Virus record (IMG/VR): IMGVR_UViG_3300031994_000017
Location: 58,023 to 122,022 of that record
Direction: 5' to 3' (one strand)
Length of the DNA stretch: 64,000 bases
DNA from: a virus
Taxonomy: Duplodnaviria; Heunggongvirae; Uroviricota; Caudoviricetes
Numbering within the stretch: position 1 is the first letter of the stretch; each line of letters starts with the position of its first letter. The notes beneath the pieces are model-generated. The model made no database searches. It saw only the letters and a program-made list of their open reading frames with translations, and was not told the DNA's origin. The translations under genes and the position numbers were made by a program. Positions 2,305 through 57,724 of this stretch are shown piece after piece.

Positions 2305-2490
2305 ATGCCCATTATTTCAAAAGTGAAACTTCCTAATATAACTACACCTTATGATATTGGCGTAAATTGGGAAAATGTTAAAGATAAACCAAATGTGGGT
2401 GGAGTTGATGTTAGCGTGAGTGATGAGGATTTAAAAATAAAAACAAATAATAATATATTATTAGAAAGTGCCGAGGAGGTAAGTTTCTAA
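2305..2490 (+). CDS. Small hypothetical protein upstream of the plus-strand fiber gene
   Basis: 61-aa ORF with AGGAG SD. Confidence 0.4.
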   Translation: MPIISKVKLPNITTPYDIGVNWENVKDKPNVGGVDVSVSDEDLKIKTNNNILLESAEEVSF

Positions 2491-2492
2491 TT

Positions 2493-4439
2493 ATGAGTGA
2501 ATTATATAGTATTAAAGAAGAAACTTTAACAAGTATAGCAAATGCGATACGTAGCAAAAATGGTAGTTCTGATACTTATACGCCTGGCGAAATGGCAGAT
2601 GCTATTGCGGCGATTAGTAGTGGAAGCGTAGAACATCTGTCGTGGCATTAGTGTCCAGAGCTGGTGCGGAATTATCTGGTGGCAGCAGCCGCGGCATATC
2701 CAACTGCGGCAGCAGATTTTACTGTTATCAATGAAAATGATTATGGTGAAGTAATGTATCAAAACATCCCCGACGCTGTAAGCAATGCAAACTCAAAACC
2801 AATTGGATATACTATTGATGGCATTACGTTTTATAACAATGAACCTGGTGTAGCAACGCCTTTTGCTACAACAAACAAAGCTGGGACATTAATGGCTTTA
2901 GATTGGCTCAGATGGTATAATACGACATTGGCACCTAAGGCGGAAGGAAGCTAGTATCCGCGTGGAAAGAATTGTAGAGATCTTGGTGGTTGGGCTTGTG
3001 ATGGTGGTACAATTAAATATGGGATGCTCGTGCGCGGCTCTGAGCCAAATCCTGCCGATAAAGATTTAATGGTCAACAAAATTGGCATCAAGACTGAAGT
3101 TCAGCTCCTACCGGTCTCGGAACAAGGCACGAATTACAAAATGAAATCTCCATGGGGCATTGATTGGGCAGGAAATGACACAGAGGCTAGTTCTGTTTAC
3201 AGCATTACCGACAGCAAAGTGCTTTGGAAGAAGCTCCTCGAACCTATCATGGATTCTGTTATTCACAGCAAACCAGTTTACTTTCATTGTGGTGTTGGCG
3301 CAGATCGCACTGGTGTTATAGCTATGATGCTAGAAGGACTGCTTGGGGTAAGCAGAGCTAATGTAGATATGGATTTTGAACTTACGAATTTTGCGCTTGG
3401 ATGGAAAATAATTAATGGTAATGTATATCGTTCTAGAGCATACCCTACATATCAAAGTATGATGACGGCTTGGATGAGTGACAGTTCTAATCCTCTAGTT
3501 GGGGGATTAACAGATAGTTTTCGTAATCGCTGTATCTCTCATGTTTTGTCTTGCGGTATTAAAATTGATAAAATCAACGCTTTTCGTGCGGCAATGATTG
3601 ATGGAAACCCTGAGACGATCACCATTACAGTACCAGCTTACACAATCAGCAAGAGTGGAATTAATATCAATTTTGATAATCAAATTTCGTCTGTAAATGA
3701 AAATGACTCGTATAGCGTAGGTGTGACTCCGGCAAGCGGCTATGTGATTTCTGATGTCTCCATAACGATGGGTGGCGTGGACATCACGAGTCAGGTGTTC
3801 AGCGGAACTCCAACCACGCGCCGCGTCCGTGTAACAAACAATCTGGTAAACTGCTCCACGTCCAACAGCGCAAAAGTGGTTGAGACTGGAACGGCATATG
3901 CGGCTACGATCACCGCTGACGAAGGGTACACGCTTGATGGAGCAATAATAACTATTACAATGGGAGGAACTAGCATGAGTCAATATTATTCAAATGGTAC
4001 AATCAATATTCCTGCTGTGACTGGTGATGTTGTTATCAGCATTTCAGCGGTTGAATCTGTTCGGGAGAATCTATTTGATCCTACTAACGCACAATATAAT
4101 AAGAGAATCAGTTATAGTAGCGGCACAGAAAGAGACAAGACTGGCGGTTTGGTCACAAATATGATTGATATTACTAACATTAACACGCTTACTGTTGAAG
4201 GAATCACCGAGCTGGCATTGTTTGAATCCCTTTATGCTTTGGAAGCATACTATTCAACAGGCACGTTTGGTCAAGGATACCTTGGATACAGATCATCTAC
4301 GAGTGCTACATATGTTTTTGATGTCGCATCTTACAAAGCAGAGTATCCTACCGCTACGCACATTGCGCTCTACTTCGGTATCTCGACTGAAGCAATCTCG
4401 GCGGCAAATGTGGCAGATCTTGCTATTTATGGTAGCTAA
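2493..4439 (+). CDS. Tail-fiber or receptor-binding-like protein. It has an N-terminal anchor module shared with the 14195..16081 paralog, a Cys-based phosphatase domain (HCGVGADRTG, CX5R) and Ig-like repeats. It contains 2 in-frame TAG codons.
   Basis: ATG at 2493 after a GAGGAGG SD. Two in-frame TAG codons are read through. The N-terminus ETLTSIANAIRSKNGSSDTYTPGEMADAIAAIS parallels SNLTAIANAIRAKNGLSASYTPAQMPAAIGEIS of 14195..16081. The GC content is elevated. Confidence 0.5.
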
Positions 4440-37052: not shown

Positions 37053-38459
37053 TTAAAGTTCAGCAAGTCTATCTTCGTCCATGGTATCAGTTGCGCCACT
37101 CTCTGCCGCAAGGTCGGCCGCAATTCCAGAGAGAACCTTAAAGGAAAAATTCTTATGCTTGTAAGCAGTAAACTTAGGACGATTTACAATGCGAATTACA
37201 ACACCTTCGCGCACATGAGTCTTACCAATAGGGTCAGGGCCATCATAAAATTGTTCAGCAATATCTTTTACATACTCGCCAGGAACAAAGTCTTTTTTAG
37301 TCCAATCATCTGGTTCATCAAGATAACCACGCCACAATACAGGAACACATTTTGCGCCCATTTGTTCGCAACGATAACGCATAAAATCGGGAGTATATTC
37401 AACAACATCTCCATCTTCATTAGTAAAAGTCATGCGATAAACATAGAAATCAGACTGCGGCACAGCTTCTTGAATAACTTTATCAGTATTGGCATCAATC
37501 ATAGCGGAAAGAGGTTTAGGATTACAGCCATAAGAAAATACAGTAGTAGGACCATACTGCTTAGTAAATTTCTTATCAGAAATTTTACTATTCGGAACAG
37601 AAGCCATAATAGGATTACCATCAGTAGTAAAACCTACAATCTCGTAATATACGGTTTCGCCCTTCCAAAGCTTGCCTTCAAAGAATTTAGCATGAGGCTC
37701 GCGGAAAGCATTGCTTCCGTAGAAACCACCATCTTCAAAATCATCAAGAACAACTCGACGAGTACCAGTTACATAACCCCAATCATAAATAGGAGTTCCT
37801 TGCCGACGGAGAATCTTATCCAAAAGAGTGCGCTTATAGCCTTGGAGTTTCGGAAGATAGCCAGTTCGGCCAGAAGTGCCGTGCATCTTCAAGGTAATTT
37901 CAATCTGGTCGCCGGGTTTAAAAGCGTTCATATTATAGACAAGCTGTTCAGTATCTGCGTGCTCTGCGAATAAAGGCGCAATAGGGACAGAGCGCTTACG
38001 AGTTCTATTTCCCTGCCGAGTATAAGTAGAAGAGGAGTGATTACCACGAGGAATATACTTGCGGCAAATCTCATGACCATTTACAATATCAATTTTATCG
38101 CCTACTTCAAACCTAGTTTCGCCAGTGTAAGCAAGACTAATAAGTGGCATAAAAAGTCCTTCAGATTTTTCACCACGCAACTTCATGGCGCGAATATTGC
38201 GCTTTTCCGGATCAAGGTAGCCACCAGCAGGATTACCATTCTCATCCTTGCGCCGCACAAGGTCATTTACCTTACAGTACTCTTCACTCAACTGAAGATC
38301 AATAGGGAAATAAACACCAATATCACCAAGCTGAGTGCTAAGATCTACAATCACATTGTTGCTAAAAATAGTAGCAATTTGAAGTCTATCCGCATTAGAA
38401 TGAGGATGAAGTTCATTAATTTTCACAATATAAGCAACATGTTCGCTCATTTTTATCAC
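37053..38459 (-). CDS. RNA ligase-like nucleotidyltransferase (K-x-H-G) with an N-terminal tRNA-binding OB (Myf-like) domain
   Basis: N-terminus KINELHPHSNADRLQIA...KLRGEKSEGLF; motif I LKMHGTSGR. Confidence 0.45.
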   Translation of the reverse strand: MIKMSEHVAYIVKINELHPHSNADRLQIATIFSNNVIVDLSTQLGDIGVYFPIDLQLSEEYCKVNDLVRRKDENGNPAGGYLDPEKRNIRAMKLRGEKSEGLFMPLISLAYTGETRFEVGDKIDIVNGHEICRKYIPRGNHSSSTYTRQGNRTRKRSVPIAPLFAEHADTEQLVYNMNAFKPGDQIEITLKMHGTSGRTGYLPKLQGYKRTLLDKILRRQGTPIYDWGYVTGTRRVVLDDFEDGGFYGSNAFREPHAKFFEGKLWKGETVYYEIVGFTTDGNPIMASVPNSKISDKKFTKQYGPTTVFSYGCNPKPLSAMIDANTDKVIQEAVPQSDFYVYRMTFTNEDGDVVEYTPDFMRYRCEQMGAKCVPVLWRGYLDEPDDWTKKDFVPGEYVKDIAEQFYDGPDPIGKTHVREGVVIRIVNRPKFTAYKHKNFSFKVLSGIAADLAAESGATDTMDEDRLAEL

Positions 38460-41286: not shown

Positions 41287-42075
41287 TTAATGAGTATCTC
41301 CTTCGTAATAAAAATTAGGGTCTTTTTTAAGCCACCAATCAATTTCGCCTGTTTCCGCGTAGTTATTCCAACGGTCTACAATAGTTTGAAGTGGCTCAAT
41401 ATCAGTATAATACATTTCAACCCCTGGCCGCACTAAACGGTCATCATGATAATGGCCAAAAAGCCAAATTTTCCAATTAGCAGTTTTTTGGACACTATTT
41501 AAAAATTTTTCCATAGTTTTATCTATTTTCTTTTGGTCTATAGCAGATAAAAATAAATCAGTAGGCTCCCACGGCAAAGGGCAAGTATGAGTTAATACTA
41601 AATCTACAGTTAAATTTTGAGAGAAAATAAGAATTTTACTTCGTTCATGTTCATTTAACATTTCATTAGCAAACCAACCTGTTGCTTTTGGGTTATTATT
41701 TTCTTCAGTATATCCAGCTCTAAAAATACGATACCATTTATCAACAGAATATGCTCCCCCAATAGTAAAAGTAATAATACCATTAAAATTATAAAGTCCG
41801 CCATCCATTAAATAACGAATATGCGGAAATTGTGTTTCCATGTAGACATATTCATTTACTTCTGGGTCATACAAGTAAGACATCGTAGGAATGTCTTCAG
41901 GTCGTGCTTCATGATTGCCTCTTAGACAGTAAAAAGTAAATCCTAAATCTTCGGCTTGCTGTTTTAGTTTTTGATCCTTTTTATTAAGATAAAAATTAAA
42001 ACCACAATCTCCTAAACAAATGATAGCTGTTTCTGTTGGATTATATACAAGATGTAAATCAATAAAGCGGTCAAG
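41287..42075 (-). CDS. Metallophosphoesterase (start uncertain; 1 TAG near the N-terminus)
   Basis: VSDLHGKLDRF...LGDCGFNFY...CLRGNHEARPED... continuing into the 41287..41883 ORF (THTCP, GHYH). Confidence 0.45.
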   Translation of the reverse strand, partial: LDRFIDLHLVYNPTETAIICLGDCGFNFYLNKKDQKLKQQAEDLGFTFYCLRGNHEARPEDIPTMSYLYDPEVNEYVYMETQFPHIRYLMDGGLYNFNGIITFTIGGAYSVDKWYRIFRAGYTEENNNPKATGWFANEMLNEHERSKILIFSQNLTVDLVLTHTCPLPWEPTDLFLSAIDQKKIDKTMEKFLNSVQKTANWKIWLFGHYHDDRLVRPGVEMYYTDIEPLQTIVDRWNNYAETGEIDWWLKKDPNFYYEGDTH

Positions 42076-42491: not shown

Positions 42492-44048
42492 TTACTTAAT
42501 ACAACTGTATCTTTCATCGTTAAGCTTATCAAGCATAAGCTCAATACCAGTCTTATTCTTCATAATCTGCTCAAAGATGGAAGCACTCATACCACTTACA
42601 TAAGAAACACTAGGGCCATCATCCAAAATTGTATTTTGACGAGCCTGTACATTCCAATAAATAAGCTTGGGCATTTGATATCCAGCATGATTCCACTTAT
42701 ATCGCATATTTTCCATCATGGTCTTGGTATTATCTGAACGATGATAATAACTATAATAACCACCTCTGGCAGCATCAATTTCCATATCACTAATTACAAT
42801 GATAGAACCAGGAAGATCTTCTTGCGCCAAATGGTTTTTAATAGCAGTATTTAGCACGAGGTCAAAAGCAGCTTCAAGATTGGTATTCTCACAAAGGTTG
42901 GTGGAATAAATTCTTTCTACCTTATCTACAAAATCAACGCCTTCAGTCTTAATTAGCTGGGGAGAACGACTAAAGGAAATATAATTTCCATGGAAAGGAC
43001 CTTTAGCCTTTTCTGCGCAATACAAACCAAGTGAAATTGCGACATTGATAGGGGCCGCAGCATCTGTGCCCCACATAGAGCCAGAAGTATCTACCATAGC
43101 AAGCGCGTTAAGATTTGCTCCATTAAAATAATCTGTAAGATTATCCCAATACTTATTAATCATAAGACGTTCGGTATTATCAAGAGGAATTTCTTCTCGC
43201 CCATACCAACTATAATGACTATGATAAGTAAGATTATAAGCCTTTGCTACAACCTCATAAGGATAAAGATCCTTAGCATTTACTTTAGTGGTAGTATCTT
43301 TAGCGAAATCCGCATAAGACTTTACGTTTTTGTTCTTCATGCGCTCAACATCGTGGCGCGCAAAAGCATTACGATAAATAAAGCCAGCCTTAGAAGGAAT
43401 TTTATCAAATTCAATCTTATCCCACTCATTTGCGCTCATAAGACGTTCAAGCACATTAATACGTTTCCGCAGCACAGACAAAGTCTTACGATATTGCTGA
43501 TGCGTCATATTAAAATAATTCCGAGTTTTATTACCAAGCAAACGACTCTCAGGGCTAGAAGTATTTTCACTTTTCAGCCACTTAGCCAGCAAAGAAGGAG
43601 TCTTACACTGAACATCCAAAGCAAGCTGATGTTTCATCAACTTAAAAGCGTCCTTCTCTACAGGAGTGCCAACAAAGGTATAGAGGTCATCCCATCTACC
43701 ATACAGAGGCACACAATCAAGATTTACGCGTACATCATCGGGATATGCATTTGCGAGCCACTTTGCGCATACGCGCCAAAAACGTCTTTCACCCTGGCCG
43801 CCACGCACATCGCGCAAATAAAACAGACACTTAAGCGCGTAAAGACGATCCTCTTCATAAGCGTTCTTAAAAAGAAGGATAACATCTGCATCACTTCTGG
43901 TCCGATATGCGCCACCAAAAGCAAACATATCATAAACTGCGCTCAAGGTAGACTTATGCGCCAGGCCGCCGTTCTCAGTCAACTTATAATTAGTGTCTTT
44001 AGTCATAGCATCAATAAGCTTACTCATATTTTTTCTCCTTTTTCTCAA
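42492..44048 (-). CDS. Ro60/TROVE-like N-terminal domain plus a C-terminal vWA domain (Rsr-like architecture)
   Basis: 518 aa; MIDAS VDTSGSMWG in the C-terminal third; helical N-terminal region (ALKCLFYLRDVRGGQGERRFWRV). Confidence 0.35.
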   Translation of the reverse strand: MRKRRKNMSKLIDAMTKDTNYKLTENGGLAHKSTLSAVYDMFAFGGAYRTRSDADVILLFKNAYEEDRLYALKCLFYLRDVRGGQGERRFWRVCAKWLANAYPDDVRVNLDCVPLYGRWDDLYTFVGTPVEKDAFKLMKHQLALDVQCKTPSLLAKWLKSENTSSPESRLLGNKTRNYFNMTHQQYRKTLSVLRKRINVLERLMSANEWDKIEFDKIPSKAGFIYRNAFARHDVERMKNKNVKSYADFAKDTTTKVNAKDLYPYEVVAKAYNLTYHSHYSWYGREEIPLDNTERLMINKYWDNLTDYFNGANLNALAMVDTSGSMWGTDAAAPINVAISLGLYCAEKAKGPFHGNYISFSRSPQLIKTEGVDFVDKVERIYSTNLCENTNLEAAFDLVLNTAIKNHLAQEDLPGSIIVISDMEIDAARGGYYSYYHRSDNTKTMMENMRYKWNHAGYQMPKLIYWNVQARQNTILDDGPSVSYVSGMSASIFEQIMKNKTGIELMLDKLNDERYSCIK

Positions 44049-44841: not shown

Positions 44842-45576
44842 TTAAAAATCTTTTGTTCCTTTACCAAGATTACAATCTTGGCACAATGTTTGTAGATTTT
44901 CTGGGACAGTTTTTCCACCTTTTGCAATTGGAATAATATGGTCAACATGAAGTTTAACTCCATCCGCTTGTGTACGGCCACAAATTTGACATTTATAATT
45001 GTCTCGTTTCAAAATATCATAACGCAATCCTGCGGTTAATTTTTCTCGTTCTTGCTTTCTATTATCAATTGAATTATTTAAATTTTTTGTGTTATTTTCC
45101 AAGAATTTATCTAAAAAGAAAAAATTTTTTTGTTTTATTGCTTCTAAATATTCATCAGTTCCCCAACTTATAAGGCAATAATACGCTAAAGGATGATTCA
45201 TATCTTCTTGACATAAAACTTTAGAAAAATTTTGATTGTCAACAATATTAAGAAAATCTTTTATTTGAAATTTATGATAAGGAGGAACGTTAAAATAAAC
45301 TACCCCATGTCCTTCTTTTCTTGAATTTGGAATGGTTTTTTGACTAAAATAAATGCGCCAAAAACTATTTGTATCAAAATCTAAGCGACACAATATATAA
45401 GATAATCCTTGATTAGCCAATTCAATTAACCATTTTGAAAAATATTCATTAAAAAAATTATTAGAATCCTGAATCGCTCTTTCTCTTTTTATTTGTTGTT
45501 CTAATTGATATGTTTTTTCTTGCTGTTCTATTGTGGTTTTGGTTAATTCTTGTAATTGACTAACTAAACTATTCAT
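44842..45576 (-). CDS. HNH endonuclease
   Basis: C-terminal YKCQICGRT...HVDHIIPIAKGG...NLQTLCQDCN. Confidence 0.6.
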   Translation of the reverse strand: MNSLVSQLQELTKTTIEQQEKTYQLEQQIKRERAIQDSNNFFNEYFSKWLIELANQGLSYILCRLDFDTNSFWRIYFSQKTIPNSRKEGHGVVYFNVPPYHKFQIKDFLNIVDNQNFSKVLCQEDMNHPLAYYCLISWGTDEYLEAIKQKNFFFLDKFLENNTKNLNNSIDNRKQEREKLTAGLRYDILKRDNYKCQICGRTQADGVKLHVDHIIPIAKGGKTVPENLQTLCQDCNLGKGTKDF

Positions 45577-45616: not shown

Positions 45617-45652
45617 GGACCGGGATACCAGATTCGAACTGGCATCGCAGTC
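45617..45652 (-). pseudogene. tRNA 3'-half fragment (T-arm plus acceptor 3' strand, no 5' partner)
   Basis: Minus-strand GACTGCGATGCCAGTTCGAATCTGGTATCCCGGTCCA. Confidence 0.3.
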
Positions 45653-45754: not shown

Positions 45755-46069
45755 TTATCTAATGTTATTTAGATATTCTTCTTCAGTAATTTCTTCCCAA
45801 GTGGTATAGTCAGAAATAGAGTCATAATAATCTTCTCGGTCTTCTTCAGATTCCCAATCTTCATCCCAACCAGTTACTACATACTCATAGGATTCTGCGT
45901 ACTCATAGGCGAAATTATCTGCACAAGATTCAATATAAAAAGGATCAGAATTAATATCTTCTTCTGTGACCATGATATATTCATCCCAGTCACAACCACA
46001 GTAACCATTTCCACCGGATAAATGAAAATAACGCATAATTTTACTCCTTTTTTTATTATCTAGACTCAT
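45755..46069 (-). CDS. Acidic hypothetical protein
   Basis: 104-aa ORF. Confidence 0.35.
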   Translation of the reverse strand: MSLDNKKRSKIMRYFHLSGGNGYCGCDWDEYIMVTEEDINSDPFYIESCADNFAYEYAESYEYVVTGWDEDWESEEDREDYYDSISDYTTWEEITEEEYLNNIR

Positions 46070-46141
46070 TAAAAAACATCTTCTAAAATCCCAAATTCTA
46101 TGATTATTTTTTTAATAAATTGCTGTGTGAGTCTAATTACA

Positions 46142-46217
46142 TGGCAGGGGAAGTGAGGCTCGAACTCACAACCTACGGTTTTAGAGACCGTCGCTCTAGC
46201 CGATTGCGCTATTCCCC
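46142..46217 (-). tRNA. tRNA-Sup(CTA), an amber suppressor: anticodon stem ACGGT/ACCGT with loop CTCTAAA
   Basis: GGGGAATAGCGCAATCGGCTAGAGCGACGGTCTCTAAAACCGTAGGTTGTGAGTTCGAGCCTCACTTCCCCTGCCA. Confidence 0.65.
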
Positions 46218-46276
46218 AATATAAAAACAAGACAGTATATTAATTGCTTTATCCTCTAAGCTAACTTTCCTATTCA

Positions 46277-46345
46277 TGGCGGAAGGTATCGGAATCGAAC
46301 CGATGATACATTAAATAATGTATTTGCTGTAACTGTCTTTATCTT
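46277..46345 (-). pseudogene. tRNA-like 3' fragment with a CCA end and T-arm (ATCGGTTCGATTCCGAT) but no canonical 5' acceptor strand
   Basis: Sequence inspection. Confidence 0.25.
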
Positions 46346-46390
46346 ACATATATATTATATCATATTTTTTTTAAAAAATCAAATTAATAT
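46330..46390 (-). promoter_or_regulatory. Conserved promoter motif (copy)
   Basis: TTGATTTTTTAAAAAAAAATATGATATAATATATATGTAAGATAAAG on the minus strand. Confidence 0.5.
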
Positions 46391-46449
46391 TTTTAATTTA
46401 TAAAACCAAAAGTGAAAATATAATACCTAAATATTATAATTAATAACAT

Positions 46450-46716
46450 TTATTTAGCCAATCAGAATCTTTCCAAGTATAATTTCTAAAGGTAAGTAAA
46501 TTCATTCTTGCTAAATATCGTCCTAAAATATTTTTACCTTTATACATTATGGTTATTTTTTCCCAATATTTTTTAATATATGGATAATCTAAAGCTTTTA
46601 ATACTGGCAAAAATGTATTTATATTATAAGGATCAATAATATTTATTAACTCTTGTTTTGTATGCTCAGTATAAAATTGTTTATTTTTTTTCTAATAATA
46701 CTAATGTTTCATTAAA
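46450..46716 (-). CDS. Small hypothetical protein (2 TAG codons)
   Basis: MKH[TAG]YY[TAG]KKNKQFYTEHTKQELINII... Confidence 0.25.
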
Positions 46717-47521
46717 TAAGTCCTTCAATATATGCTCTATCTTCGGTAAGAATAGGCATTTCATCATCAATATACCAAGGATGACGTGTAATTACAATAC
46801 CATTTTCTGTCTCAGTAGATGCTAAATATCGCCGCACAAAAGAGCCTCTCTTTTCGGGAATTGAATAATCATCCCAATTAATTCCCTTTTGGAAAAGCAT
46901 TTCTTGAATATCTGCTTGAGATTTACCATTTAATTCCTTATGACTGAATTGTGCCTGGCCAGCAGCTTGGATACTATTTCTTGTAGCATCCTTTTGGCGC
47001 CAAATAAAATAATTACAAACCTCTTCTTTAGGAATATTAAATGCTCGCGCATCAAAAGTTGCTCTAAATTGTTTAGGACACCAAAGATTATATTTATCCC
47101 AATAGCGTTCATTATCACCTTCAAAAGAATGTTGTGTCATAGCATCATAAGATTTCACTGTTTCAGCAACTTGGTAATTGAAAACTGCGGTAGCACGTGC
47201 GGCCGCAAGGGTAGTAATCTTTTGAAGATTATAGTCAAACCAAGCATCAGTATCAATATTTTGATAATCAATTAAAAGAAGAGAAATTTCATCACTCTGG
47301 ACATATCCACCAACACAACCTTGAATACCTGCGCAAAGAGATTTACAAGTTTCTTGCATCATACGCATAAAGTCGGCATCAAAGGGTCTATCAAGACCGC
47401 GAGTAAAAGTGTGAAAAGCATTACCATCTACTCGGATGATTACAGGCATACGCCGAGTTAGATAAAATCTATATCGGTTTTCATAGAAGTCTTTCATTCT
47501 ATCGCCAAGAGTATCTTTCAT
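46712..47521 (-). CDS. Thg1-like protein (tRNA-His guanylyltransferase / 3'-5' polymerase family)
   Basis: PVIIRVDGNAFHTFTRGLDRPFDADF matches the Thg1/TLP N-terminal catalytic signature; strong SD (AAGGAGGG). Confidence 0.55.
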   Translation of the reverse strand: MKDTLGDRMKDFYENRYRFYLTRRMPVIIRVDGNAFHTFTRGLDRPFDADFMRMMQETCKSLCAGIQGCVGGYVQSDEISLLLIDYQNIDTDAWFDYNLQKITTLAAARATAVFNYQVAETVKSYDAMTQHSFEGDNERYWDKYNLWCPKQFRATFDARAFNIPKEEVCNYFIWRQKDATRNSIQAAGQAQFSHKELNGKSQADIQEMLFQKGINWDDYSIPEKRGSFVRRYLASTETENGIVITRHPWYIDDEMPILTEDRAYIEGLI

Positions 47522-48039: not shown

Positions 48040-48144
48040 ATATTACAAGACTCCTACTATACTTTGCCGACATATAGTTTTAATAAAAATGGAGGCTATT
48101 AATTTTGCTGTAAGAGTCTTTGTTTGTTAACAAAAATTAATTAA

Positions 48145-49579: not shown

Positions 49580-49665
49580 TGGAGCCGAAGGTGAGATTCG
49601 AACTCACGCGGGCTTGCGCCTCTGGGTTACAAATCCAGTGCAATCGACCACTATGCGACTTCGGC
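49580..49665 (-). tRNA. Class II tRNA with anticodon loop TTTGTAA. Loop position gives TGT, but the long variable arm argues against Thr, so the identity is uncertain (Tyr-like?).
   Basis: GCCGAAG...CTGGATTTGTAACCCAG...GTGAGTTCGAATCTCAC...CTTCGGCTCCA. Confidence 0.45.
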
Positions 49666-50704: not shown

Positions 50705-50730
50705 ATATTAAGCAAGACACTTATAATTTT

Positions 50731-50796
50731 AGAGGGTCGGATTTGAACCGACAATTTCCAATTTTTTAGATTGGCGACTTAACCCTTTGTCTACCC
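50731..50796 (-). pseudogene. Degenerate tRNA-like element (anticodon loop CTAAAAA, weak acceptor stem)
   Basis: Perfect T-arm GTCGGTTCAAATCCGAC, but the acceptor has 2 internal mismatches and no CCA. Confidence 0.25.
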
Positions 50797-50829
50797 AAAA
50801 AATTAAATTTGCTGTAAATGTCTTTAAAA

Positions 50830-52998: not shown

Positions 52999-53078
52999 TG
53001 GAGGTTCCGGTTGGATTCGAACCAACGTAACTACTGCTTTGCAGGCAGCGGCCTTGAACCAGACTCGGCAACGGAACC
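52999..53078 (-). tRNA. tRNA-Cys(GCA) (probable)
   Basis: Stem GCTGC/GCAGT with loop CTGCAAA. Confidence 0.45.
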
Positions 53079-53082
53079 ATAT

Positions 53083-53217
53083 TGGTGGGGAAGGACAGGA
53101 TTTGAACCTGCGAAGCTTTTTATAGCACTGAATTTACGCTCATTAATTGCTGTTATCAAGCCTGACTACGAGACTCAGTTATGATTTCAGCCCCTTTGAC
53201 CGCTCGGGAACTTCCCC
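53083..53217 (-). ncRNA. 135-nt tRNA-like RNA. Its ends pair perfectly (GGGGAAG / CTTCCCC followed by A-CCA) and it has a canonical T-arm, but it carries about 45 extra nt.
   Basis: GGGGAAGTTCCCGAGCGGTCAAAGGGG...GCAGGTTCAAATCCTGTCCTTCCCCACCA. Confidence 0.3.
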
Positions 53218-53221
53218 ATAT

Positions 53222-53297
53222 TGGTGGGCCATCCTGGAGTTGAACCAGGGACGCGCAGGGCTTCAACCTGCCGCTCTACCAACTGAGCTAAAGACCC
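53222..53297 (-). tRNA. tRNA-Phe(GAA)
   Basis: D-arm TAGCTCAGTTGGTAGAGC; loop TTGAAGC. Confidence 0.65.
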
Positions 53298-53916: not shown

Positions 53917-54294
53917 TTATCCAATAGCAAATGAACAAAGATGTTTTACACATTCAGGTTCATCAATTTCAAAATATCCATTCTTCTTTTGGTCGTATTT
54001 AAAAAATTGGCGGTTCATTGTATCATTAGAAATACCTTCATAGTATTCTTCCAAAACCGCGTAATTATAAATAGTCTCCCAAAGATCAGTACGATTTTCA
54101 TGAAGGGTATTAAGAGCGTCTTGTTTGTTAGAATAAAATCCCCAACAACGCTGATCGCCAAAATCAGTATAAAATTGTTCGCTAGGTCCAATTCTTTCCA
54201 TTACAGTAATAAACCAATAAGATTGTTTCATATATCCTCCATAAAATAAATTAAAACTAGACACTTTAAAAGAAAAATGTTGGATTTGAACCAA
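53917..54294 (-). CDS. Hypothetical protein
   Basis: 125-aa ORF. Confidence 0.35.
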   Translation of the reverse strand: MVQIQHFSFKVSSFNLFYGGYMKQSYWFITVMERIGPSEQFYTDFGDQRCWGFYSNKQDALNTLHENRTDLWETIYNYAVLEEYYEGISNDTMNRQFFKYDQKKNGYFEIDEPECVKHLCSFAIG

Positions 54295-54345
54295 CTACAT
54301 CCAGATTACAAAGTCAGGCGCTCTACCATATGAGCTAAATTCTCT
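54272..54345 (-). tRNA. tRNA with a TTTGTAA-containing anticodon loop (Thr-TGT-like; imperfect stem)
   Basis: D-arm TAGCTCATATGGTAGAGC; T-arm GTTGGTTCAAATCCAAC. Confidence 0.4.
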
Positions 54346-54366: not shown

Positions 54367-54461
54367 GTGCCTAAAATGGTACTCCCCCTCGGATTCGAAC
54401 CGAGATCGTACGCTAATCTGGCGCCTTATGCCGGGCATAAACCGGTTGCACTACCGTTGTG
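54367..54461 (-). tRNA. Atypical 95-nt tRNA-like with candidate anticodon TAT (loop TTTATGC) and a very long variable region
   Basis: Acceptor GCTCCCC/GGGGAGT, discriminator A, CCA; T-arm CTCGGTTCGAATCCGAG. Confidence 0.35.
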
Positions 54462-54561
54462 CTAGGGGAGCATATAATAGCAGTTATAAAACAGAACCAA
54501 TGTATACATTAATTCCTAGAACTGACCTGCTACAGTTTATATATCTTAAATATATCATTAA

Positions 54562-54930: not shown

Positions 54931-54950
54931 ATATACATACAAGACATTTT

Positions 54951-55024
54951 TCATTGCAGAGGGACTCGAACCCCCAATAATCCATTAATCAGACGGATGA
55001 GTTAACCATTTTCTCTATACATTA
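54951..55024 (-). tRNA. tRNA-Ile(GAT)-like with a weak acceptor stem and no CCA (possibly a pseudogene)
   Basis: Stem TCCGT/ATGGA with loop CTGATTA. Confidence 0.3.
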
Positions 55025-55047
55025 AATTGCTGTAAATGTCTTTATTA

Positions 55048-55133
55048 TGGTACCAAGGGGCAGATTCGGACTGCCGTGACGGCATTATCAGTGCCGCATA
55101 CTAGACCGCTATATGACCTCGGTATATTTCTAG
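55048..55133 (-). tRNA. tRNA-Ile(GAT)
   Basis: Stem CGGCA/TGCCG with loop CTGATAA; acceptor ACCGAGG/CCTTGGT. Confidence 0.55.
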
Positions 55134-55184
55134 GCCCATCTTTTTAGAGTATTGATCTACCAGCTGATCTATTTTCAAAATTAA

Positions 55185-55254
55185 TGGCTTGAAAAGTTGG
55201 AATCGAACCAACGACATATACTTTGTTAAGTATGATTGCTGTATAGGCCTATTA
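55185..55254 (-). pseudogene. tRNA-like element with a good T-arm/acceptor 3' strand and CCA but a non-canonical 5' half
   Basis: GTTGGTTCGATTCCAACTTTTCAAGCCA; no matching 5' acceptor strand. Confidence 0.25.
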
Positions 55255-56169: not shown

Positions 56170-56235
56170 TGAACTTGACGGATTCGAACCGTCTAATTGC
56201 CTTACGAGGGTCAATTACAGATCCAGTGTAGTTCA
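56170..56235 (-). pseudogene. Degenerate tRNA-like element (T-arm GACGGTTCGAATCCGTC)
   Basis: 6-bp acceptor but no clear anticodon stem. Confidence 0.2.
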
Positions 56236-57265: not shown

Positions 57266-57724
57266 TTGAAATTCCTACCTTTCAAATTAAATTTTGCGTC
57301 CTCGCCTTCTTCCTCGGGACTTGGAACCCGCATACGGTGGTTTACGCAAAATATATAAAAACTAGAGGCAAGAAAAACACATTGTAAAAATACAACTGGG
57401 TGTAAAAGAAACCTCTAGAGTAAATTCTTTTGTTCCCATACACTTTAAAATATATGAGAAAAGATGCCACCCTTCTAGCCAAGACAGCGACTCCCTAAAT
57501 CTTGGTTCTCTGTTTAGAAGGTCTTAAACTTACAAAATTGACGCGTCTTTGTAAGAAGCTGTAAGGAAGCTCAAACCGCATTGCTCATTCACCCGTCAGA
57601 ACTATGCTCCTAGGAGGTACTAATCGGCGTTTTCTTTTATTAGTGAAGAAACCCGTTTTCTCATAACCAAAAAAGAAAAACTTGCGGCAAAAGAGCTGAT
57701 ATCCGCGATACGAATTGCCGCAAT

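Follow-up and report, generated by a model that had tools for sequence, protein, structure and literature searches.

Is an RNA that ends in CCA, lies in the tRNA array of a tailed phage and carries a long insertion where its anticodon loop should be a tRNA, the precursor of a tRNA, or an RNA of another kind? The RNA in question (hereafter the target) is encoded in a 64,000-nt stretch of a Caudoviricetes genome (positions 58,023 to 122,022 of IMG/VR record IMGVR_UViG_3300031994_000017; the whole stretch is hereafter the window). A preliminary interpretation made from the letters and open reading frames (the sequence-only reading) had placed it at 53083-53217 and regarded it as a candidate Y RNA or an intron-containing tRNA. 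These boundaries proved exact and the RNA real: its gene is 135 nt long and lies on the minus strand, so that the RNA reads as the reverse complement of the window letters. Ro60-Y RNA particles occur in animals, bacteria and a few phages, and to our knowledge their RNA partners in bacteria and phages have been listed only for proteins annotated as TROVE. We consider, with slightly better than even confidence, that the target is a Y-like RNA of tRNA topology that partners a phage Ro60-like protein.

From 5' to 3' the target consists of GGGGAAG-UU-CCCGAGCGGUCAAAGGG-G-CUGAA-(53 nt)-UUCAG-U-GCUAUAAAAAGC-UUC-GCAGGUUCAAAUCCUGU-C-CUUCCCC-A-CCA (parts in Table 1). The 7-bp GGGGAAG/CUUCCCC stem, the A-CCA end and the canonical T arm are all present as initially described, and the acceptor stem and the D, variable and T arms form an intact tRNA body. 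The elbow nucleotides are canonical, with GG in the D loop and UUCRANY in the T loop, and an additional, conserved C at 53094 separates the T stem from the acceptor stem. CCA-AUAU-G spacers stand on both sides of the target, which is the same punctuation as that of the adjoining tRNAs in the array. A canonical 5-bp anticodon stem with a 7-nt anticodon-bearing loop is lacking; the loop is replaced by an insertion, which had been noticed but put at about 45 nt, and which measures 49 extra nt in the Rfam alignment and 53 nt as enclosed by CUGAA/UUCAG. The insertion has a hairpin with single-stranded ACAGCAAU directly 3' of it, and in the conserved structure the distal helix is stacked on the 5' side of the proximal stem while a 22-nt single strand runs on the 3' side. 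The Rfam tRNA model (RF00005) aligns over the full length of the target, at model positions 1-71, with 25.8 bits (E = 0.0016, local search); the score falls below the gathering threshold of 29 because of the 49-nt insertion in the anticodon loop. ARAGORN makes no call on the target with or without its intron mode. These detectors miss the target because about 53 nt stand in for the anticodon loop, and its description as a tRNA mimic rather than a detectable standard tRNA was correct.

The parallel that had been drawn with YrlA needs to be revised. The terminal stem, taken before as the Ro-binding stem, is an acceptor stem of the ordinary kind, 7 bp long and with CCA encoded, and the layout is not exactly that of YrlA. 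The candidate protein-binding module, made up of the hairpin and ACAGCAAU, is located within the insertion, where a tRNA has its anticodon arm, so that the YrlA layout is circularly permuted in the target. Model searches, which had been proposed as the check, gave no match on the target at E ≤ 10 for the Y_RNA and YrlA families of Rfam, nor for its intron and ribozyme families. Two other identities were rejected: a tmRNA, considered for its GGGG...CCACCA ends, as there is no G3-U70 pair, tag reading frame or ARAGORN tmRNA call; and a small self-cleaving ribozyme, as no Rfam ribozyme match overlaps the target. Elsewhere in the window, a weak twister-P1 match at 57295-57348 on the minus strand (27.2 bits against a gathering score of 67.2) is probably due to chance.

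Conservation of the target was assessed in related phages. Exact and near-exact DNA searches of viral contigs with the target found nothing, a BLAST comparison of it with the first 27 of the related loci was likewise negative, and the small ORF adjoining it, used as a query, retrieved no related loci. Searches of viral and genome collections with the invariant CTGAAATCATAACTGA...ACAGCAA returned only chance matches in coding sequence. Homologs surfaced instead through spurious ARAGORN "intron" calls and gapped patterns. In related phage contigs that were reached through the neighbouring Thg1-like gene, the RNAs homologous to the target begin UAUAU|GGGGAAC and finish with GUUCCCCACCA; among them, the relative in L005 is a shortened copy without the 3' half of the would-be anticodon stem. 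True orthologs were obtained by a gapped pattern search of metagenomes, namely L157 and L159, the latter identical to L160. In the three-way alignment the differences are limited to the D loop, the distal hairpin, the linker and the variable arm, and the acceptor, D and T arms and the CCA are invariant. A seven-helix model of 31 pairs is kept in all 93 of 93 pair cells (100%), and only 31-56% of cells pair when the partner strand is shifted by 1-3 columns. Compensatory double changes affect four pairs in two helices, the variable arm and the distal hairpin, whose variants are GUCU/AGGC, AUCU/AGAU and GCCU/AGGU. The proximal CUGAA/UUCAG stem is invariant, so covariation speaks neither for nor against it. 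Since the punctuation of the array is shared and all pairs are kept in the orthologs, the target is not a chance match.

Table 1. Coordinates of the target RNA, its neighbours, the other ACAGCAA elements and the protein genes discussed (positions in the window).
Feature	Position	Strand	Remarks
Acceptor stem, 5' strand GGGGAAG	53211-53217	minus	Pairs with 53087-53093; 7/7 bp, invariant in 3 orthologs
D arm CCC-GAGCGGUCAAA-GGG	53192-53208	minus	3-bp stem as in type II tRNAs; GG dinucleotide in loop
Proximal "anticodon" stem, 5' strand CUGAA	53186-53190	minus	Pairs with UUCAG at 53128-53132
Module hairpin, outer part	53155-53185	minus	AUCA/UGAU pair, UAACUGA internal loop, then U before UGAU
Module hairpin, distal stem-loop GUCU-CGUAGUC-AGGC	within 53155-53185	minus	Covaries among orthologs
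ACAGCAA, single-stranded signature	53147-53153	minus	Invariant; 1 nt 3' of module hairpin
Linker UUAAUGAGCGUAAA	53133-53146	minus	Core AUGARCG(G)UAAA kept in orthologs
Proximal "anticodon" stem, 3' strand UUCAG	53128-53132	minus	
Variable-arm hairpin GCU-AUAAAA-AGC	53115-53126	minus	GCU/AGC to GUC/GAC compensatory change in L157
T arm GCAGG-UUCAAAU-CCUGU	53095-53111	minus	
Acceptor 3' strand CUUCCCC, discriminator A (A73), encoded CCA	53083-53093	minus	
tRNA-Phe(GAA)	53222-53297	minus	Flanks target
tRNA-Cys(GCA)	52999-53078	minus	Flanks target
Open-class module, part 1	46229-46339	minus	AAGACAGU-U-ACAGCAA, then V hairpin, T arm
Open-class module, part 2	46229-46339	minus	Acceptor hairpin (loop GCCAUGAAUA), D arm, then ACUGUCUU-G; YrlA-like
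Open-class variant UAGGCC...GGCCUA	55131-55251	minus	Encloses YrlA-like permuted tRNA module
Open-class module, 9-bp helix AAGACAUUU/AAAUGUCUU	54941-55042	minus	tRNA-like cargo without CCA
Open-class module, tRNA-like cargo without CCA	50714-50824	minus	9-bp helix version in close relative L156
Open-class module, short hairpin cargo	48047-48120	minus	Upstream of tRNA-Ser
Open-class module UAGACUCA/UGAGUCUA, short cargo	46061-46135	minus	Upstream of ORF 45755-46069; compensatory changes of helix in L156
DUF2828 + DUF7788 (vWA/MIDAS) protein, proposed partner	42492-44048	minus	Likely start ATG at 44026
RNA ligase	37053-38459	minus	
Metallophosphoesterase	41287-41883	minus	
HNH endonuclease	44842-45576	minus	
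Thg1-like tRNA-His guanylyltransferase	46712-47521	minus	

The helix with its ACAGCAA signature is found far beyond the target, in hundreds of phage loci and in cultured phages of Mycobacterium, Bacillus, Listeria and E. coli. Its family consensus is a covarying AAGAC-N4/N4-GUCUU-G helix with ACAGCAA 0-2 nt 3' of one strand, and a downstream complement exists at 135 of the 202 ACAGCAA sites in the fetched loci and the window. When the pairing of N4 was tested with an anchor independent of it (the first GUCU downstream), the mean was 2.45 Watson-Crick pairs out of 4, compared with 1.53 in permuted controls (maximum 1.77 in 1000 permutations). Position 1 of N4 is occupied by A-U (61), G-C (25), U-A (21) and C-G (8) pairs, the outer pair of the helix also covaries (A..U 96, U..A 9, G..C 7), and a G follows the helix in 114 of 141 cases. 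From the pairing and covariation of N4 it follows that the module is a true RNA helix, on the inner side of which ACAGCAA is conserved and single-stranded.

The modules enclose cargos of three classes: (a) tRNA-like sequences in normal order without CCA; (b) permuted tRNA-like sequences, in the order V hairpin, T arm, acceptor hairpin and D arm; and (c) short hairpins. In the window each class is represented twice, by 54941-55042 and 50714-50824, by 46229-46339 and 55131-55251, and by 48047-48120 and 46061-46135, respectively. The target is a fourth arrangement, in which the helix is closed by a loop and the RNA ends at the acceptor stem. About 20 more RNAs of this arrangement were found in other phages by a scan on acceptor and T-arm criteria only, and their hairpins, aligned without the target, share a GUCUU-G...AAGAC consensus with an invariant G. 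An alignment-based covariation test was adopted in place of a single-sequence comparison of hairpins with shuffles, which was weak (p 0.0 to 0.6). In 14 loop-closed tRNA-embedded modules from other phages 82.5% of cells are paired versus 58.7% in shuffles, and the covariation score of 0.619 versus 0.201 was reached by 0 of 500 shuffles.

The target and class (b) have one cyclic order in common: helix strand, ACAGCAA, V, T, acceptor 3', acceptor 5', D, helix strand. They are thus circular permutations of each other, and the open element is what a tandem dimer of target-type genes yields when it is read from module to module. In 13 of 41 candidate permuted cargos the acceptor-hairpin loop starts with N-CCA (mostly GCCA) and goes on into an AU-rich spacer, against a chance expectation of about 0.6; examples are L040 6074, L045 5741, L094 3413 and L082 4577. 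Such loops resemble a retained tRNA 3' end, a spacer and the next 5' end, which suggests a tandem-dimer origin or processing at this point. Some phages carry tRNA-embedded modules in tandem (L030 3470-3860; L036 10451-10811; L116/L117), and these can be read in two ways, as a tRNA with an insertion or as a helix-closed 3' half plus the 5' half of the next tRNA.

The window itself has 10 copies of ACAGCAA on its minus strand and 4 on its plus strand. Seven of the former are in the tRNA array, with AAAGAC-N4-ACAGCAA-W-UU as a longer common consensus, and the six of these outside the target have xAGAC-N4 with a perfect 6-9 nt complement 58-106 nt downstream, followed by G. An ends-pairing stem of YrlA type that would bear the Ro site is present in 46229-46339 and 55131-55251, and the best matches to the YrlA model in the window, 46221-46330 and 55150-55220, score 28.5 and 28.1 bits against a gathering score of 69. 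The acceptor-hairpin loops of these two elements read G-CCA, then an AU-rich spacer. The two normal-order cargos are called by ARAGORN as tRNA-Ile(GAU) at 54950-55025 (within 54941-55042) and tRNA-Phe(AAA) at 50727-50801 (within 50714-50824). Their acceptor stems are AU-rich and imperfect, and both cargos are probably tRNA-like domains of module RNAs, not decoding tRNAs. Five pseudo-tRNA-like sites had been listed as possibly related decoys; those at 46277, 50731 and 55185 are indeed inside ACAGCAA-module elements, whereas those at 45617 and 56170 are orphan T-arm-like hairpins.

Directly upstream of one open-class module, at 46340-46400 on the minus strand, lies a sigma70-like promoter, TTGATT-17-TATAAT, and the promoter-module arrangement is kept in relatives (L003 about 11100; L004 about 1020). 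This conservation suggests that module RNAs are primary transcripts of the host RNA polymerase. That the motif itself is a phage promoter, one copy being T7-promoter-like, was considered and rejected, because some copies are downstream of sigma70-type promoters and the variable part covaries with the downstream complement.

The protein proposed as partner is encoded by ORF 42492-44048. It matches DUF2828 (1e-29) and DUF7788 (5e-39) in Pfam and PHROG 850, "RNA-binding protein". An AlphaFold2 model built with 22 homologs has a helical part at residues 37-308 and an alpha/beta part at 315-509, the MIDAS motif DTSGS at residues 320-324 is invariant, and the top seven Foldseek matches are all Ro60 (E 2e-4 to 6e-3). 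The Rsr-like layout that had been seen in this ORF therefore stands as to fold, with a helical N-terminal and an alpha/beta C-terminal domain bearing DTSGS, and falls as to sequence, as TROVE is not matched. On the predicted model, the protein is best regarded as Ro60-like at the level of fold, a helical-repeat ring with a MIDAS vWA domain, and not by sequence family. Homologs exist in 705 cultured-phage records, including Felix O1-like, Listeria P100-like, Bacillus and mycobacterial phages, and the mycobacteriophage homologs carry the annotation "Ro-like RNA binding protein".

To what extent are the modules linked to genes of this family? A DUF2828 homolog (23-70% identity) is present in about 30 of the ~119 loci that were fetched solely by the DNA motif. 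Modules near DUF2828 genes are all on the strand of the gene, and ten are ≤62 nt upstream; in L068, L134 and L057 they abut the Shine-Dalgarno sequence of the DUF2828 gene, a placement that is typical of RNA-binding proteins regulating their own mRNA. Among loci retrieved without use of the motif, ACAGCAA sites are structured in 22 of 35 cases where DUF2828 is present (100 kb), compared with 3 of 50 where it is not (363 kb). Four cultured phages from across the family were tested (Mycobacterium phage Clautastrophe, Bacillus phage PBC2, a Listeria Pecentumvirus and E. coli Felixounavirus nataliec), and each carries 3-7 modules on the strand of the gene and no more than 4 kb from it; for the 40-kb tRNA region of Bacillus phage G, a negative control without a DUF2828 or Ro gene, the count is 0 of 5. 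The helix of the GC-rich mycobacteriophage becomes GGAC/GUCC while ACAGCAA is unaltered, and among the three tandem modules of this phage one matches YrlA with 39 bits. In the window, sibling modules are 2.0-2.2 kb from the DUF2828 gene. As a separate observation, a match to ROOL RNA was found in L169 (Listeria phage vB-LmoM-SH3-3) at 2472-3023 (89 bits, gathering score 99.1, E = 9e-17); its place is between tRNAs, and the DUF2828 gene with its three ACAGCAA modules follows about 1 kb downstream.

Published Y RNAs have a stem beside a short conserved single-stranded or bulged motif that is touched by Ro60 (PMC4201824; PMC12135203), and a second domain, tRNA-mimicking in YrlA, and they are encoded beside Ro60 on the same strand (PMC4201824; PMC12135203). 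RNAs with the ACAGCAA module fit these features, with another motif and a divergent Ro60-like partner, and it is on this ground that we read the target as Y-like. The data establish the structure of the target and its conservation, the module family with its genomic linkage to DUF2828 genes, and the Ro60-like fold; from them we infer that the target binds the protein, is stable and functions as follows. It would be transcribed along with the tRNA array as a stable non-coding RNA and would probably be excised by the normal tRNA end-processing enzymes. Its anticodon arm appears to have been remade as a protein-binding arm of Y-RNA type, made of the 5-bp proximal stem, the distal hairpin and single-stranded ACAGCAAU, and this module is a candidate binding site for the DUF2828-vWA protein. 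The module would hold the ring protein, and the tRNA-like body might recruit or decoy factors that recognise tRNAs. The presumed setting is a neighbourhood of tRNA quality control or repair: the RNA ligase, metallophosphoesterase, Thg1-like enzyme and HNH endonuclease around the Ro60-like gene and the tRNA array (Table 1) resemble an RNA-repair gene neighbourhood, which fits the role in RNA repair or quality control that has been proposed for Ro-type particles (PMC7824862).

Several observations weigh against this interpretation. The covariation observed in the target alignment was reached by 21 of 500 shuffles, a weak statistic because only three orthologs exist. The target hairpin deviates from the AAGAC/GUCUU consensus in having AGGC/GUCU, an additional segment of 4 bp and an internal loop. 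A small covariance model (R1) built from the loop-closed modules of other phages gives the target only 9.2 bits (E about 4); R1 carries little information, and its top matches are the six open modules at 12-14 bits. The motif of the target is an internal ACAGCAA(U), and the YrlA motif, GNCGAAN0-1G near the 5' end (PMC4201824), is absent. The target lies on the strand of the DUF2828-vWA gene at a distance of 9.0 kb, in agreement with the sequence-only reading (about 9 kb), and this is beyond the 4 kb or so within which YrlA (RF02553) is typically encoded from its Ro60 ortholog (Chen et al. 2014, PMC4201824). On the protein side, ORF 42492-44048 has no TROVE match in Pfam at E ≤ 10, Ro60 was not found in sequence and profile searches of the PDB with this ORF, model confidence is modest (pLDDT 71.5) and the Foldseek TM is about 0.34. 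Finally, the encoded CCA and the invariant flanks that look like an anticodon loop (AUCAUAA and GUAAA) suit a functional tRNA precursor equally, and with its insertion deleted the target becomes a perfect type II tRNA.

These last points lead to the strongest rival of the Y-like reading, namely that the target is a functional type II tRNA gene whose anticodon loop holds a protein-spliced intron of ~50 nt. Cleavage by an endonuclease at the module would leave two halves for the phage RNA ligase to rejoin with the help of end-healing enzymes, with the DUF2828 protein as a possible recognition platform, and the isotype would be Tyr, Leu, Met/Ile or amber suppressor depending on the junction. We hold this to be unlikely. 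In its favour, removal of the insertion in silico yields an 85-nt type II tRNA with an ARAGORN score of 104.4, albeit with an ambiguous anticodon (GUA, CUA, CAA or CAU); an intron-less look-alike in another phage, a tRNA-Leu(CAA), has the same D arm and anticodon stem; and the flanks AUCAUAA and GUAAA-UUCAG are invariant in the orthologs in the manner of anticodon-loop halves. The encoded CCA and tRNA-type punctuation agree with it, genes for an RNA ligase, a metallophosphoesterase and a Thg1-like enzyme are close by, and some loop-closed modules of other phages are placed 5' of an intact anticodon stem-loop. The intron-containing tRNA that the sequence-only reading had offered as an alternative thus keeps some probability. 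Against it, no recognised splicing device is present: the 50-nt insertion is far below the size of a group I intron and matches no intron family at E ≤ 10, bulge-helix-bulge geometry is absent from the conserved structure (there are no 3-nt bulges 4 bp apart), and no splicing endonuclease was identified in the window. Moreover, the same module is found in RNAs that are not tRNAs, such as short hairpins and the 5' leader of a DUF2828 gene, the relative in L005 lacks the 3' half of the stem that would carry the anticodon loop, and tRNA-Tyr, tRNA-Leu(CAA), tRNA-Met and tRNA(CUA) are already present in the window. A bolder form of the idea is that the loop-closed and open forms are interconverted at the RNA level, or are substrates of a phage system that cuts and rejoins RNA. 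The helix with ACAGCAA would then act like the archaeal bulge-helix-bulge signal and be read by the Ro60-like protein, some nuclease would cut and the phage RNA ligase would seal, so that the target would be spliced into a working tRNA and the permuted cargos with N-CCA-spacer acceptor loops would be circularised. We regard this as quite improbable; if true, it would give bacteriophages their first protein-dependent system for splicing or permuting tRNAs. In a weaker version, target-type RNAs may be an evolutionary intermediate between tRNAs and the Y RNAs of YrlA type.

The helix and ACAGCAA could also be a signal for RNA processing or regulation and not a Ro-like binding site, either a site for an endoribonuclease specific for sequence and structure or a leader element that punctuates the tRNA polycistron, with the copy in the target directing cleavage or regulation. 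It is in keeping with this that modules stand between tRNAs, downstream of sigma70-like promoters and just ahead of ribosome-binding sites, that they flank cargos of many kinds, and that the N-CCA and AU-rich spacer of the permuted acceptor loops resemble a processing junction. A helix of 7-9 bp is, however, too short for RNase III, the strand-specific linkage to DUF2828 in phages of four bacterial phyla would be left unexplained, and the adjacent RNA-binding protein of Ro60 fold is a more economical reader of the motif; we thus find this explanation distinctly unlikely on its own, while noting that processing signal and Ro-like binding site are not mutually exclusive. Highly improbable, in our opinion, is a decayed pseudo-tRNA into which a small repeated element was inserted and which has no function of its own. 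Its score below the tRNA-model threshold, the repetition of the module in the array and the shortened copy in the L005 relative would be accounted for in this way, but decay would hardly preserve 100% of pairs in three orthologs with compensatory changes in two helices, nor invariant acceptor, D and T arms and CCA, and analogous tRNA-embedded modules recur in many unrelated phages.

The array in which the target lies extends over ~45.6-57.8 kb and contains 31 ARAGORN tRNA genes, all on the minus strand, of which Rfam confirms 29 at gathering. Other features of the array are also unusual. The two orphan T-arm-like hairpins are outside the called tRNAs, one at 45627-45643 (minus; GCCAG-UUCGAAU-CUGGU), preceded by CCA-UAU-AAGACUGCGAU and followed by a U run, and the other at 56177-56193 (minus; GACGG-UUCGAAU-CCGUC). 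A tRNA of amber-suppressor type with anticodon CUA is encoded at 46142-46218 (minus; labelled "Pyl" by ARAGORN) and is present in one or two copies in related phages L001-L005. Its presence is a hint that TAG is recoded in part of the genome; with the standard code, the ORFs of the window read through. A tRNA-like gene at 54270-54345 (minus) has an 8-nt anticodon loop (CUUUGUAA) and an AU-rich acceptor stem without CCA, and a nearly identical body is the cargo of a module in L053 (site 3026). The tRNA-Ile(UAU) at 54377-54471 (minus, 95 nt) and the tRNA-Thr(UGU) at 49580-49665 (minus, 86 nt) have long extra or variable arms, which are unusual for these isotypes.

Returning to the Y-like reading, Ro60-Y RNA systems, including those of phages, and tRNA mimicry by YrlA are already known. 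No description of the ACAGCAA + AAGAC/GUCUU module, of its systematic pairing with DUF2828-type proteins or of the CCA-ended form of tRNA topology was found in Rfam 15 or in the searchable part of the literature on DUF2828, Ro-like phage proteins and phage Y RNAs. Our results indicate a second and much larger phage branch of Ro60-Y RNA, with DUF2828-vWA proteins and apparently an RNA signature of its own, which appears in three topologies: at a tRNA-like acceptor end, in permuted YrlA-like elements and in the anticodon arm of a CCA-ended tRNA-like RNA. If this is true, a testable protein-RNA pair would be available for a very common phage gene whose function is so far unassigned, many "pseudo-tRNAs" and odd tRNA calls in phage tRNA arrays would be accounted for, and there would be a concrete evolutionary route from tRNAs to Y RNAs.

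Four known systems are close to the target. With YrlA it shares a tRNA-like domain, in which canonical T and D arms accompany a helix of acceptor type; a further helix, after which comes a short single-stranded motif that is conserved and rich in purines; the gene of a vWA protein of Ro60 fold on the same strand; and the cyclic order of elements. They differ in that the target ends at the acceptor stem with an encoded CCA, whereas YrlA ends at the protein-binding stem, which is closed by a loop in the target; the helix family consensus AAGAC/GUCUU-G is also unlike that of YrlA, and the partner is of DUF2828 type without a TROVE match. Yrl1 and Yrl2 of Thermus phage phiLo (PMC12135203) and mycobacteriophage YrlA likewise combine a phage vWA ring protein with adjacent small RNAs, in which a 5'-3' stem flanks a bulge with a short conserved motif. 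That motif is CGAA, the proteins are of TROVE type, and these RNAs are not described with a tRNA topology ending in an acceptor-end CCA. The tRNA introns of bacteria (group I) and archaea (bulge-helix-bulge) resemble the target in being inserted in the anticodon loop and in that their removal restores the cloverleaf, but the insertion of the target is of ~50 nt, has neither a group I core nor a bulge-helix-bulge, and shares its motif with RNAs that are not tRNAs. Lastly, as with the permuted tRNA genes of Cyanidioschyzon merolae and permuted tmRNA, the window contains normal and permuted forms of one architecture, the permuted order being T arm, acceptor 3' strand, N-CCA, spacer, acceptor 5' strand and D arm; unlike those, the permuted forms of the window are without an anticodon loop and end in the module helix.

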